DNA of 38,182 bases from Candidatus Parcubacteria bacterium (GTDB lineage Bacteria > Patescibacteriota > Minisyncoccia > Phycocordibacterales > Zambryskibacteraceae). The translations under genes were made by a program, and so were the position numbers. The stretch covers positions 1 to 38,182 of the forward strand of contig JAIFWN010000004.1 in assembly GCA_019658995.1 (NCBI GenBank), in the 5' to 3' direction. Shown piece by piece: positions 3,061-34,507 of the stretch (its first letter is position 1; the number at the start of each line of letters is the position of its first letter). A model generated the notes under the pieces. The model had not been told where the DNA came from and did no database searches. It worked only from the letters and a program-made list of their open reading frames with translations.

Positions 3061-5076
<2,016 letters not shown>

Positions 5077-5565
5077 TTAGTATCTCACGCGGACTGCTCG
5101 CTCAACCCTGCGGGCATTGCCCGGTGCGCAGGTATTATAGCCCAAAGATTCTATGGTGGTACGAAGGTCAGGAGTCTTGGTAACTGTCACCGTAGCGCAG
5201 TAAGGGTCAGGCAGGAATGTCAGCGAAAAGACAGAGATTCCCGAGGCTCCGCCGACCTGGTTCGGTGTCGGGTTGGTTTTACCTCCCTGCGTATTGACAG
5301 AGTCGGAATTGCAGTTGATGGTCGACGTAGTCGTGGTTGAAAAGGCGCTTAGTCCGGAAGGGTTTTTGACATCCCAGTAGATAGCGCACTCGATGCCGGT
5401 ATCCGCTGCGTAGAAGGCGAACTGTGACTCTCTGCCGGCCGAAGCCAGGATGGCTTCTTTGACCGCTACAGATACTATGCCGGTCGAGACCAGGAGCAGA
5501 GTGGCCGTAATGACGATAGCGATAAGCAATGTGAATCCTCGCTGATTTTTTCTTTGGTTTTTCAT
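5077..5565 (-). CDS. Minor pilin, PilX-like (prepilin-type N-terminus lacking Glu5)
   Basis: I place the start at the internal ATG giving MKNQRKNQRGFTLLIAIVITATLLL. This ATG overlaps the stop of the upstream gene (ATGA at 5562-5565). It has a hydrophobic N-terminal helix with a GFTL cleavage-type motif. Confidence 0.7.
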   Translation of the reverse strand: MKNQRKNQRGFTLLIAIVITATLLLVSTGIVSVAVKEAILASAGRESQFAFYAADTGIECAIYWDVKNPSGLSAFSTTTTSTINCNSDSVNTQGGKTNPTPNQVGGASGISVFSLTFLPDPYCATVTVTKTPDLRTTIESLGYNTCAPGNARRVERAVRVRY

Positions 5566-18096: not shown

Positions 18097-18501
18097 CTAA
18101 CGAAAGAGCTTCTCCAAAGTGACAAACCGTACATCGATACGCATTAATTCGGCCCGAGACTTCCGCCAATCCGGCAGAGTCTTCTCCACCAGAGCCCAGA
18201 ATCTTTCGGAATGATTAAATTCCTCAAGATGGCAGAGCTCATGGACGATGATGTAGTCGGCCAAGTGCGGCGGCAGGAGCGCGATGCGATAATTAAAGTT
18301 CAAATTCCCCTTCTTCGAGCAACTCCCCCACCTCGACTTATGGTTCTTGATAGCTATCCGCTTGTAATCGAAGTTGTAGAAAGTATTGAAGTGCTCAAGC
18401 CTCGCCTGCACCAACCCCCGCGCCATCTCTTTATGCTTCAAATACCTTGCCGAGGGTTTCCTTTTTCTGTCCGCTCTTTTTCTCCTAAAACTTAAAAACA
18501 T
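18097..18501 (-). CDS. YgjP-like (DUF45) M48-type zinc metallohydrolase, short form
   Basis: 134 aa. It has NHKSRWGSCSKKGNLNFNYRI and the HExxH motif in IIVHELCHLEEFNHSERFW. The N-terminal beta-rich half of longer family members is absent. Its ATG shares one nt with the stop of the upstream MTase gene (TAATG). Confidence 0.75.
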   Translation of the reverse strand: MFLSFRRKRADRKRKPSARYLKHKEMARGLVQARLEHFNTFYNFDYKRIAIKNHKSRWGSCSKKGNLNFNYRIALLPPHLADYIIVHELCHLEEFNHSERFWALVEKTLPDWRKSRAELMRIDVRFVTLEKLFR

Positions 18502-19343
18502 TAAATTCTCACAAGAGAATCCGAATAGACCATTAATTCTCTGGCGTTTCTTATTCTTGTCGTTCTGTATTTAAAAGATAATCTATTTCTATTCCTATCC
18601 GAATATAGATCCCTGACCCTTCTATTCTCGTCATAAGTTAATACCCAGTGCGCCTTATTACTCTTGTTTAGTGTTTTAGCTAACTTATTGTGATAATCCT
18701 TATCTTTAACATTTAAATATAAAGCGTACCCCTCCGCGAAATATGGTGGATCTAGGTATATAAATGTGTTTGTTATTTCTGAGTACCTCTTAAACACCTG
18801 GAGCCCATCTTCGTTACTAACTACAATTTTACTTTTGAATTTAGCAATTCTCTGAATTCTGTCGATTAGACCTTTTTTATTAAATCTTGCATCAATTTTA
18901 TACTTCCCGTTCTGTTTTATACCTCCGATAGGATTAGCATTAATTATTCCGTAAGCGTTCGTACGATTAAGAAAGAAGGTTGCGAAACCTCGCTCAAATA
19001 TTTTAGATTTAGAGCTTTTGTAAATTTGTTTCTGTATTTTCCACTCATCAATTGTAATCGGCGTGGATAAAATTTTATTTATGAATTTTCGATTATGGTT
19101 AACAACTGAATACCAGAAACTATATATACAGTAATCTAAATCATTTATTACAATCTTCCTGACTTTATTTGAAAACAATAGAGATAATGCTGCTCCTGCA
19201 CCTCCTGCAAACGGTTCAATATATACTGGCCTTCTCAAACCATTATTTTCAATAATTTTTGAAAATCTTGATGAAAGGAACGCTTTGCCACCTGGATATC
19301 TCAAGGGCGATGATGGAACCATACTTAAGATTCTATAAAACAA
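18501..19343 (-). CDS. Dam-family (D12 class, alpha-type) N6-adenine DNA methyltransferase
   Basis: It has RYPGGK, the AdoMet motif I EPFAGGAG, FFLNRT and the catalytic motif IV DPPY (aa 198-201). The start is either 19343 (19-nt overlap with the upstream gene) or 19322 (2 nt after its stop). Confidence 0.85.
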   Translation of the reverse strand: MFYRILSMVPSSPLRYPGGKAFLSSRFSKIIENNGLRRPVYIEPFAGGAGAALSLLFSNKVRKIVINDLDYCIYSFWYSVVNHNRKFINKILSTPITIDEWKIQKQIYKSSKSKIFERGFATFFLNRTNAYGIINANPIGGIKQNGKYKIDARFNKKGLIDRIQRIAKFKSKIVVSNEDGLQVFKRYSEITNTFIYLDPPYFAEGYALYLNVKDKDYHNKLAKTLNKSNKAHWVLTYDENRRVRDLYSDRNRNRLSFKYRTTRIRNARELMVYSDSLVRI

Positions 19344-20665
19344 AAAGTCTTTAGGGAAGTGAAGGTTTTTCTTTCCAGATCAGCTTTTATCCGTGCGGGA
19401 TCTTTTATTTTCTTATTTGGATCATATACAAATATAAAAAGCGTCTCACAATCTTGAGATTCATTATAGTGATGAGTATCTACAATAAGTTGTGATGTTA
19501 ACTTAGAGTCTGTTAAATTTGAGCTAGCCATTTTAATTTCAATTACAATTTTTTGTGGTTTTAGAAGAAAATCCACCCTTGATGCCTTGCCCATGTATGA
19601 AGGCGTCCACTCTTCTTCATAAACTTGGTCAAAAAACAAATTCAAGAAAATTCTCATTAAATCCTGCACATCATATTCATCATTAATCTCAATTGAACCT
19701 CTATTGTCATGTCTCGGTTTAAGAGCTGCCACAGCACGAGAAAAATTAGAAGAAATATGTTTTAAAATTTCTATTCCGAGATCTGAACTATATGTCGAAG
19801 TTTTTCTCGAATTCAACGGGAATGAGAGTGCGCTCTCACTTCTGTTCTCCCGATCGTTTTCATCTCTCTTGTGACCAACTGTCGTTATACTCGAAATCGA
19901 TTTATCTAATATCCCTTTCGTCCATTCCACCGCCATTGAATTTTTGTATACATCACCTACTTTAAACGACTTTCCAGACATGACTTTGAAGATTTTTTTG
20001 ATATTTCTAAGTACTTCAGTTTTACTTTTAGTAAGCACCAGTAGTCCTTCAGGGAAATCGATACCAATCAATTGGCGCACCGCGGGATTACCCAGTAATC
20101 GATTGTCTAAGGTGGTAGAATCAACATTTGACCTTTTAATTCCATTTTGATCTGCGAAATCAAATACTTGAACAGGCTTTGATGGCTTTTTTCCTCCATG
20201 CTGGGATAGAAACCTTAATCGCTGTTCAGTATTCCAGGATAATACTCCCCTACCCTTATTTGCTCCAGTATGTTCAAGATTAATCCAATGGAAAGCATCC
20301 TTTGGATTTTTAAAAGACACTACATCAATTTCCTTTGGTACTTGTGACGGATATTTATCCCTTAGAGTTTTAAATTTTTCCCTGTATTTTTCATCCTGAA
20401 TTAGGTTAGGATTTGATAATAATTTTGCAGCAACAGTGCGGCGGTTACCTTCAAGCGCGAGATATTTTTTATTAACAGGTGTAACTATCAAGCGTTTAGT
20501 GGGATTAAAACCTCTTTGGACTATATCTTCAGCTAGATTCAGCAATTCTTTCCCCGACTTTTCAATCATCATGCCAATAGCTTCTTTTTCGTTTTTTACG
20601 CTAGTAAAACGAGGGTTTTCTGAGTTTGGAATTAACTCATTGATATTAATGGTCTTCTTGTCCAT
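19325..20665 (-). CDS. ParB/Srx-like N-terminal domain protein with a C-terminal PD-(D/E)xK-like nuclease motif (putative restriction/defence nuclease)
   Basis: 446 aa. The N-terminus has YLALEGNRRTVAAKLL, which resembles ParB box II GERRxRA. The C-terminus has EEEWTPSYMGKASRVDFLLKPQKIVIEIK, a spaced E..D..ExK pattern (D365, E376, K378). Confidence 0.6.
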   Translation of the reverse strand: MDKKTININELIPNSENPRFTSVKNEKEAIGMMIEKSGKELLNLAEDIVQRGFNPTKRLIVTPVNKKYLALEGNRRTVAAKLLSNPNLIQDEKYREKFKTLRDKYPSQVPKEIDVVSFKNPKDAFHWINLEHTGANKGRGVLSWNTEQRLRFLSQHGGKKPSKPVQVFDFADQNGIKRSNVDSTTLDNRLLGNPAVRQLIGIDFPEGLLVLTKSKTEVLRNIKKIFKVMSGKSFKVGDVYKNSMAVEWTKGILDKSISSITTVGHKRDENDRENRSESALSFPLNSRKTSTYSSDLGIEILKHISSNFSRAVAALKPRHDNRGSIEINDEYDVQDLMRIFLNLFFDQVYEEEWTPSYMGKASRVDFLLKPQKIVIEIKMASSNLTDSKLTSQLIVDTHHYNESQDCETLFIFVYDPNKKIKDPARIKADLERKTFTSLKTFCFIES

Positions 20666-20733
20666 GGACTCTAGGGTACTCCTGTCGAGATCAATAGGAA
20701 AGGGCTAAGAAATATGCTAAATTTGGCCCACGA

Positions 20734-20822
20734 GGAGACGTGGCTGAGTGGTCGAAAGCGCCTCACTGCTAACGAGGTAGGGTCCTTAAAAGCCCTCCAG
20801 GGTTCGAATCCCTGCGTCTCCG
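20734..20822 (+). tRNA. tRNA-Ser (anticodon GCU), CCA not encoded
   Basis: Folded by hand. The acceptor GGAGACG pairs with CGTCTCC. The anticodon loop is CT-GCT-AA. It has a long variable arm and a T-arm CAGGG-TTCGAAT-CCCTG. The discriminator is G and is followed by CA. Confidence 0.85.
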
Positions 20823-20823
20823 C

Positions 20824-30864: not shown

Positions 30865-30938
30865 CCGCCCTTAGCTCAGTTGGTTAGAGCACAGAGCTTA
30901 TACCTCTGGGGTCCTTGGTTCGAATCCAAGAGGGCGGA
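30865..30938 (+). tRNA. tRNA-Ile with anticodon UAU, CCA not encoded
   Basis: Folded by hand. The acceptor CCGCCCT pairs with AGGGCGG. The D-arm is GCTC-AGTTGGTTA-GAGC. The anticodon stem CAGAG pairs with CTCTG and the loop is C-T-TAT-A-C. The T-arm is CTTGG-TTCGAAT-CCAAG. The discriminator is A. Confidence 0.8.
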
Positions 30939-30995
30939 CAATCCTCGGAAACCCACGGTTTTCCGACGCTCGCTTCTCGAGCTGCCTTCCTCCAC

Positions 30996-34102: not shown

Positions 34103-34507
34103 GGGGATGATCGGCCTAGACAAGGCGACTCATCGGATTGACGCGCGAGAGAGCCGAAGTGACTCTCTAATCCGCTTCAAACTTCAACTGCAAACAAAAT
34201 TGCAAGAACCGTTTCTCCGTATTTTACGGCAAACGACTTCGAGTTCGCTTACGTTAGAGCTTAAGCTCGCGTAGCGCGTGGCCTCCGGGTGTGTCTCGAA
34301 CCCGGTACGTCGCGGAATATCCGAGACTCTGAAATTAAGCCTCCTCGCTTAGTTTCGAAACAATGAGGATAGAGTGCCGAGAGCTTTCGTTTGTTTTGTA
34401 TCTCGTCGCTTGATCCGCCAGCCGGCGGACAATGAAGCAAACTACCTAGCGTAGACCTCAATCCGATCTCATCTTGCACCCGGGTTCAATTCCCGGCATC
34501 TCCACCA
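34103..34507 (+). ncRNA. ssrA: tmRNA (transfer-messenger RNA), CCA encoded
   Basis: The 5' end is GGGGATGATCGGCCTAGACAAGG. The 3' end is GGTTCAATTCCCGGCATCTCCACCA. The acceptor stem contains a G3-U pair. The candidate tag ORF GCA AAC GAC TTC GAG TTC GCT TAC GTT AGA GCT TAA (34229-34264) encodes ANDFEFAYVRA. Confidence 0.85.

Follow-up and report, generated by a model that had tools for sequence, protein, structure and literature searches.

The anti-phage system PD-λ-5 was found by functional selection in E. coli and provided broad phage protection, among the broadest of the screen (Vassallo et al. 2022, Nat Microbiol; PMC9519451). Its parts were listed in the supplementary table as 'ParB/HEPN, methyltransferase', a label that the discoverers based on HHpred, and the system was termed 'RM+Abi' (PMC9519451). 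Cloning of PD-λ-5 needed an mrr-deleted host (PMC9519451), which fits an active adenine methylase. The HEPN-annotated effector of the E. coli system is presumed to act as an RNase with an abortive-infection-like outcome. Here, a related gene pair is described from a Candidatus Parcubacteria bacterium (assembly GCA_019658995.1). It is located on contig JAIFWN010000004.1, of which positions 1 to 38,182 were analysed (the window, 38,182 nucleotides). Gene A encodes a ParB-like module fused to a nuclease domain of the restriction endonuclease (REase) fold, and gene B encodes a DNA methyltransferase. The two genes probably constitute an anti-phage module of the PD-λ-5 type that resembles restriction-modification and in which a self-marking methylase and a sensor would license an exchangeable effector, in this case a DNase.

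Gene A is an uninterrupted open reading frame (ORF) with an ATG start. It encodes 446 amino acids (aa) on the minus strand and ends with the stop codon at 19325-19327. An initial interpretation of the DNA made without database searches, hereafter the sequence-only reading, had reported this ORF without its strand. The ORF proved to be intact, and the quoted motifs were found at the residues given there (R75/R76, EEEW 350-353, D365, E376 and K378). PADLOC models, used as hidden Markov models alone and without the system rules, assigned the protein to PD-λ-5. The PD-Lambda-5_A model PDLC03998 aligned aa 1-277 to profile positions 1-287 of 466 with E 4.6e-73, and at least 22 further PD-Lambda-5_A models were among the best 25 matches listed. 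No PD-Lambda-5_A profile among the matches listed reached past about aa 350. The closest relatives, P0002-P0019 with approximately 50-54% identity, aligned over aa 1 to about 255 only. Their tail was different, Pfam-silent and helical, with a conserved LRVFLE...H...W. Relatives of about 447 aa without PF18742, such as P0002, had the C-terminus of the named PD-λ-5_A-type proteins. Because homology to the relatives ends at about aa 255 and no PD-Lambda-5_A profile extends past about aa 350, the gene A protein is a PD-λ-5_A protein with its effector tail replaced by a REase-fold domain.

The A-to-B operon, the ParB-like N-domain followed by a helical domain and the D12-class adenine methyltransferase are shared with PD-λ-5 of E. 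coli ECOR7 (RCQ13837.1/RCQ13838.1), and automated annotation would probably label the locus PD-Lambda-5. Proteins closely related in the N-module, at about 52-54% identity, have the other C-terminus. The tail differs. It is annotated as HEPN in the published system, whereas aa 289-446 of the gene A protein are a PF18742 nuclease and no HEPN-type C-terminus was found. PD-λ-5 was also published from an E. coli prophage, whereas the present pair originates from a Candidatus Parcubacteria bacterium. The sequence-only reading had not recognised the fusion as a described defence enzyme. This has to be withdrawn for the ParB-like module with its methyltransferase, which is already known as PD-λ-5, and stands for the REase-fold effector, which appears to be new in place of the HEPN-type tail.

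The only family found by Pfam in the gene A protein was PF18742 (REase_DpnII-MboI). It covered aa 300-433 with E 1.9e-41 and 141.6 bits against a cut-off of 27, a match far beyond chance. The PADLOC model Aga_Helical-REase matched aa 291-432 (E 3.6e-26). A PD-(D/E)xK nuclease had been suspected in the C-terminus from the motifs EEEW (350-353), SRVDFLL (362-368, with D365) and IVIEIK (373-378, with E376 and K378). The triad D365/E376/K378 was conserved without exception, contrary to the lack of conservation that the sequence-only reading had named as a refutation. Together with E330, D332, Q334, E351 and D396, it was invariant in 18 fused homologues (alignment A3, 22-36% identical to the gene A protein) and in 48 PF18742 proteins (alignment A5). 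The nuclease site is complete, and E330/D332 (helix), E351 (beta1), D365 (start of beta2) and E376-x-K378 (beta3) are proposed as catalytic residues. The model of the domain showed the expected topology with a predicted local distance difference test score (pLDDT) of 88. DSSP assigned helices to residues 330-344 and 386-401 and strands to residues 348-351, 365-368, 373-379 and 408-414; aa 289-329 form a helical N-terminal extension. In a PDB sequence search with the nuclease domain, EcbAgaN (23wq) was the sole relative (E 1e-4). Weak Foldseek matches were mostly REase-fold nucleases, namely BstEII, NucS/EndoMS, PaqCI, XPF/Mus81, Shedu and Can2.

Gene B is located downstream of gene A on the same strand. 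Its ATG lies 2 nt past the gene A stop at the junction TAAGTATG, and the two genes are translationally coupled. The mechanical ORF start of gene B is an in-frame TTG at 19343; homologous methyltransferases begin at the same SPLRYPG motif as gene B. The protein matched Pfam PF02086 (E 1.4e-20) and PADLOC PD-Lambda-5_B (PDLC04018, E 7.2e-102), and the motifs EPFAGGAG (FxGxG) and DPPY were present.

The full-length fusion was rare. When 1.84 billion representatives were searched with a profile, it appeared in approximately 16 clusters at 50% identity (P0001, P0020, P0026 and P0121-P0133), together with thousands of N-only or C-only matches. All fused proteins were singletons of metagenomic origin, and one came from a Patescibacteria metagenome-assembled genome. 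In GTDB representative genomes, the best 80 loci were all C-domain-only. A D12 methyltransferase was located directly downstream of the fused gene in five of five readable cases, i.e., in the window, L001, L002, L094 and L095, the methyltransferases being partial in L094 ('SSPLRYPGSK') and L095 ('SSPLRYPGAK...EPFVGGG'). This agrees with the suggestion of the sequence-only reading that a defence enzyme works with a methyltransferase. The order A to B was also kept by relatives with the other tail (L003/L004 and L005). Around stand-alone PF18742 genes, a D12 methyltransferase occurred within 3 kb in none of 80 loci, with positive controls recovered, and at most five of the 80 had any ORF bearing crude amino-methyltransferase motifs. 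Because of this absence, the methylase is assigned to the ParB-like module, and the nuclease is regarded as a portable effector.

Pairwise identities to the proteins of genes A and B pointed in the same direction. In the P0006 locus, the methyltransferase was 54.9% and the N-module 53.7% identical, and the tail was unrelated. The P0020 locus showed 55.3% for the methyltransferase, 40.9% for the N-module and 36.8% for the C-domain. The P0098 locus, again with an unrelated tail, held 41.6% and 39.4% for methyltransferase and N-module. The P0026 locus had the closest C-domain with 55.8%, and its methyltransferase and N-module reached 37.8% and 30.9%. It is suggestive, from these four loci, that methyltransferase identity tracks the N-module and not the C-domain.

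A PD-(D/E)xK nuclease beside a D12-class methylase is the classical layout of an orthodox Type II system, and PF18742 is named after DpnII/MboI. The PF18742 domain would then recognise and cut a specific sequence, possibly GATC-like, and the ParB-like part would be an accessory such as a transcriptional controller or DNA tether. This explanation is considered very unlikely. The gene A protein had no match to PF04556, the real DpnII family, the 80 stand-alone PF18742 loci had no D12 methylase within 3 kb, and the same methylase and N-module also occur with a non-REase C-terminus. Gene B reached 61.8 bits on TIGR00571 'dam', below the cut-off of 114.85. Furthermore, the mrr-deleted host was needed for the E. 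coli relative though E. coli is Dam+, which would argue against plain GATC methylation in that relative. One stand-alone PF18742 gene adjoined a true DpnII operon. In this locus (L009, 2040-5759), it was located directly downstream of a complete DpnII-type operon of D12 methyltransferase, N6_N4 methyltransferase, small ORF and PF04556 DpnII. PF04556 and PF18742 were separate adjoining genes. PF18742 is there an accessory to R.DpnII and not the enzyme itself, and the layout probably explains the Pfam name of the family.

The AlphaFold2 model of the gene A protein, calculated with 62 homologues, had a mean pLDDT of 86 and showed two folded blocks, aa 1-259 and 289-446, with a disordered linker of aa 260-288 in between. 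The roughly 220 aa left unassigned between the two ends in the sequence-only reading are now divided into a helical domain (146-259), this linker and the helical extension of the nuclease (289-329). The tail is exchanged at the linker: homology to the relatives with the HEPN-type tail stops at about aa 255, and the linker is the position where the two architectures diverge. The helical domain is conserved jointly with the N-domain and is possibly a DNA-binding domain equivalent to the helix-turn-helix (HTH) region of ParB. Foldseek alignments to ParB chains of N-domain and HTH region extended over approximately 260-280 columns, with low TM-scores.

The N-domain had been described as ParB/sulfiredoxin-like with an arginine box, which was borne out by profile and structure comparisons. 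Its motifs are ENPRF (N17, R19), a box I-like LAEDIVQRGFNP, the box II LEGNRR (G73 N74 R75 R76), LEHTG (H132) and W144; the arginine-box stretch LALEGNRRTVAAKLL spans aa 69-83 and contains R75 and R76. G73, N74, R75, R76, H132 and W144 were invariant in the 18 proteins with fused architecture. The GNRR of box II (P-motif) is intact, was invariant in alignments of 18 and 26 sequences and aligned to GERR of ParB 4umk. In ParB-fold proteins, mutation of the conserved P-motif arginine abolishes nucleoside triphosphate (NTP) binding (PMC12704722). When 26 family members were combined into a profile of aa 1-150, its top PDB match was H. pylori ParB 4umk (E 5.4e-4), in an alignment that included both box I and box II. 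The top Foldseek matches in the PDB were Noc 7ol9 and ParB with CDP or CTPgammaS (6sdk/7bnk/7bnr) with probabilities of 0.9-1.0 and E 5e-4 to 4e-3, followed by sulfiredoxin 6ky4 with a TM-score of 0.58 on the target. In the viral library, ParB-like and GmrSD_N proteins ranked on top, with E down to 2e-8 for viral ParB-like proteins.

Chromosomal ParB and Noc, which are CTP-gated DNA clamps (6sdk, 7bnk, 7ol9), have the same N-domain fold as the gene A protein, along with the motifs of boxes I and II, and are the top structural matches. In contrast to them, gene A has no ParA partner and its product no C-terminal dimerisation domain; it appears to carry LEHTG in place of ENLQR, scores below PF02195 and has a nuclease attached. 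The sequence-only reading had drawn a parallel to GmrSD/SspE, which is useful as an analogy and fails as a membership. GmrSD/SspE/DndB-type (DUF262) systems follow the same logic, with a ParB/sulfiredoxin-fold NTP-binding domain and a nuclease tied to the modification status of DNA. However, the nuclease of GmrSD/SspE is HNH (DUF1524) and their box is of the DGQQR type, and they target modified DNA or detect phosphorothioate. Gene A encodes a GNRR box, which is closer to the GERR of ParB, and a REase-fold nuclease, together with a co-encoded cognate methylase. Pfam DUF262 and HNH/DUF1524 had no match in the gene A protein.

A search of phage genomes returned matches to the N-module only, with 25-33% identity and P2/Wphi-type phages among them. 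The weak N-module relatives of P2-type phages (Wphi gp98/gp96, locus L006; Peduovirus P2 228-680) were 27% identical over aa 1-155. They are located at the genome end beside a second ORF and a cytosine methylase. In the Pseudomonas phage OQ658368.1 (L007), an unannotated D12 methyltransferase ORF was detected at approximately 4391-5332 on the locus's minus strand; its hmmsearch E-value with the profile of B proteins was 1e-94. It occupies the space that follows XNT20262.1, an A-like gene, and has the opposite orientation. The two genes would form a convergent PD-λ-5-like pair within a phage genome.

In the proposed PD-λ-5-type module, gene B would methylate host DNA as a self mark. The ParB/sulfiredoxin N-domain and the helical domain would be the conserved module acting with the methyltransferase; this module would probably bind NTP and DNA and report unmethylated foreign DNA, possibly as a gated clamp. 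The flexible linker would join the sensor to the exchangeable effector, and the tail would act as the executor. DNA cleavage is the predicted output here because the PF18742 nuclease has a complete catalytic set, with DNA as the presumed substrate. Type III restriction-modification systems (Mod and Res) have a comparable composition of a methyltransferase and a subunit that joins an NTP-dependent switch to a PD-(D/E)xK nuclease. Gene B possibly supplies specificity as Mod does, and the co-variation of methylase and N-module would be compatible with such a role. Res has an ATPase of the superfamily 2 helicase type, whereas the putative NTPase of gene A has the ParB fold, and no sequence homology to Res was detected. 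A more specific version, in which the N-module is a ParB-fold NTP-gated DNA clamp that reads methylation with a co-evolving methyltransferase, for example by loading at unmethylated sites and sliding, and licenses a HEPN or REase effector, is tentative and on balance doubtful.

The main rival to the self-marking module is an abortive or toxin-like system. Triggered PF18742 would degrade DNA, perhaps RNA, indiscriminately and without sparing the host, in the manner of the Argonaute-associated DREN/AgaN nucleases once they have oligomerised, and the methyltransferase would mainly be an antidote, a regulator or an addiction element and less a site-specific self mark. The relatives of the nuclease domain speak for it, i.e., the match to Aga_Helical-REase and EcbAgaN as the sole sequence relative in the PDB. 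PF18742 proteins and the Helical-REase proteins associated with prokaryotic Argonautes (pAgo), such as AgaN (23wq), share a homologous core with the motifs DEYDVQD, EEW.P.Y.G, D-F-L, E-x-K and D and the preceding helical segment. In contrast to gene A, PF18742/AgaN proteins are approximately 250-270 aa long and stand-alone or Argonaute-paired, have no ParB-like module and normally no methyltransferase neighbour; the latter argues that sequence-specific restriction is not an intrinsic property of the domain. Gene A is not adjoined by an Argonaute-sized gene, the partner present in short pAgo systems (SPARDA/AgaN). The SPARDA effector DREN, a pAgo-associated protein of PD-(D/E)xK fold to which PF18742 may be likened by analogy, shows no activity as a monomer; tetramerisation turns it into a collateral nuclease (PMC12205087). 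The designation 'RM+Abi' would also suit such an output. Nevertheless, self/non-self marking agrees better than a simple toxin-antidote pair with the strict coupling of A to B and with the way in which methylase and N-module co-vary, and no oligomerisation trigger was evident. The abortive explanation is regarded as unlikely, and the orthodox Type II and non-defence explanations as less likely still.

Several points weigh against the restriction-modification-like module proposed here. As related pAgo-associated nuclease domains are collateral and non-specific, by analogy the outcome could be abortive infection and not selective restriction. The Foldseek matches of the nuclease domain were weak, with a best E of 0.015 and several non-nucleases mixed in. 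The gene A protein had no match to Pfam PF02195 (ParB_N) at E<=1, and the relative P0098 reached E 0.0019 and 18.6 bits, below the gathering score of 26.3; the relationship to ParB is at the level of fold and motifs and not of the curated family. At the place of box III (ENLQR in ParB), matched by position and by eye, the family has L-(E/K)-H-T-G with H132 invariant. With box III matched this loosely, NTP hydrolysis or clamping may be missing. Neither sequence nor models allow the nucleotide specificity of ParB-fold proteins to be predicted (PMC12704722, section 9). The four loci behind the co-variation are a small sample. Pfam scans for HEPN in the canonical PD-λ-5_A C-terminus were empty for eight full proteins, 16 C-terminal fragments and 10 further representatives. 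In the literature searched, no mechanistic study of PD-λ-5 and no description of a version with a REase-fold effector were found.

The effector swap splits PD-λ-5 into a conserved sensing and marking unit and an exchangeable output domain. Because its catalytic site is of textbook form and accessible to mutation and to assays on DNA, the REase variant is a convenient entry point to PD-λ-5. It raises the questions of whether a ParB-CTPase-fold switch operates in restriction-type immunity and how methylation status is coupled to the firing of the effector. If the clamp were confirmed, the ParB fold would take the role of the helicase-type ATPase switch of Type III systems, and the simplest form of a 'ParB-clamp restriction enzyme' would be found in the REase variant, which would represent a mechanistically new class of restriction-modification system based on the CTPase-switch fold. 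The fusion also extends the catalogue of ParB-fold fusions, and the functions of ParB-CTPases beyond chromosome segregation are being actively investigated. In a recent survey of ParB-fold proteins, whose search was built on Pfam domains, no fusion to REase-fold or HEPN domains was mentioned in the main text (PMC12704722). The REase fusion may have escaped this survey because its N-domain is below the Pfam ParB_N threshold.

Features of the gene A-gene B locus and other annotated genes of the window
Feature	Position	Strand	Evidence or remark
Gene A: ParB-like/REase-fold fusion, PD-λ-5_A-type N-module and PF18742 C-terminus	19325..20665	-	ORF, PADLOC, Pfam
ParB/sulfiredoxin-fold N-domain, aa 1-145	20231..20665	-	Family-invariant residues, profile against PDB, Foldseek
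All-helical domain, aa 146-259	19889..20230	-	pLDDT mostly >90, six helices; covered by PD-Lambda-5_A profiles
Low-complexity predicted disordered linker, aa 260-288	19802..19888	-	pLDDT <50
PD-(D/E)xK nuclease domain, aa 289-446	19328..19801	-	Pfam PF18742, invariant residues, domain model
Gene B: 273-aa Dam-like (D12 class) N6-adenine DNA methyltransferase, PD-λ-5_B type	18501..19322	-	Pfam, PADLOC
Upstream region, 68 nt, gene A to tRNA-Ser	20666..20733	-	AGGAG ~14 nt before ATG
tRNA-Ser(GCT)	20734-20823	+	Between gene A start and next ORF; low-GC DNA on both sides
YgjP-like metallopeptidase ORF	18097-18501	-	PF01863, E 5.6e-37; HExxH present
HEPN_AbiU2-like ORF, 164 aa	20824-21318	+	Sub-threshold HEPN_AbiU2 match, E 9e-6
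ORF of 68 aa	21318-21524	+	Sub-threshold MORN_2 repeat match
tRNA-Ile	30865-30939	+	Anticodon TAT
tmRNA gene	34103-34507	+	Tag ETLKLSLLA

Gene A was surrounded by the methyltransferase, a YgjP-like protein, tRNA-Ser, a HEPN-like protein and housekeeping-type proteins. The region upstream of gene A is presumed to hold the promoter and 5' untranslated region of the A-B operon; a consensus promoter scan gave no site there. The pair lies in a low-GC segment of approximately 18.45-21.33 kb, with 30-39% GC compared to about 50-54% in the rest of the window. The difference to the flanks (33-39% against about 52% GC) suggests horizontal acquisition. The position of tRNA-Ser(GCT) within low-GC DNA suggests a tRNA-associated insertion hotspot. 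When borders of a mobile island were sought around the locus, no integrase and no convincing flanking direct repeats were found.

This setting would also suit a function outside defence, i.e., a mobile-element regulator of ParB-like DNA-binding or partition type, in which the nuclease domain is incidental and which has an orphan methylase alongside. ParB-fold proteins with diverse fusions are common on mobile elements (PMC12704722), and the low-GC segment is located beside a tRNA gene. Among the neighbouring ORFs of the window, however, there were no ParA, integrase or replication genes, the ParB C-terminal dimerisation domain was absent, and the homologous E. coli pair was selected experimentally for phage defence. 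A non-defence function is considered highly improbable.

The YgjP-like ORF follows gene B, and its ATG overlaps the methyltransferase stop (TAATG). Its GC content is host-like and it spans just positions 108-205 of the 207-position PF01863 profile. It had no PADLOC match and did not adjoin the A-B pair in other loci. It could be transcribed together with the pair, or represent a host gene that was truncated at its 5' end where the island begins or ends.

The low-GC HEPN_AbiU2-like ORF is located directly after tRNA-Ser. Its family has an invariant R86-x4-H91 and is small, with members in Candidatus Taylorbacteria/Harrisonbacteria genomes. The ORF was considered as a split-off HEPN half of PD-λ-5_A and rejected: hhalign of its family against the alignment of the canonical C-terminus gave a probability of 0.6%, BLASTP was empty, and its homologues elsewhere were not located beside A-B pairs. 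It probably represents a small, independent gene for defence or a toxin. The 68-aa ORF starts on its last base, and GC content is back to approximately 50% there. Further downstream, the window contains a tRNA-Ile with a UAU anticodon, which is uncommon in bacteria, and a tmRNA gene.

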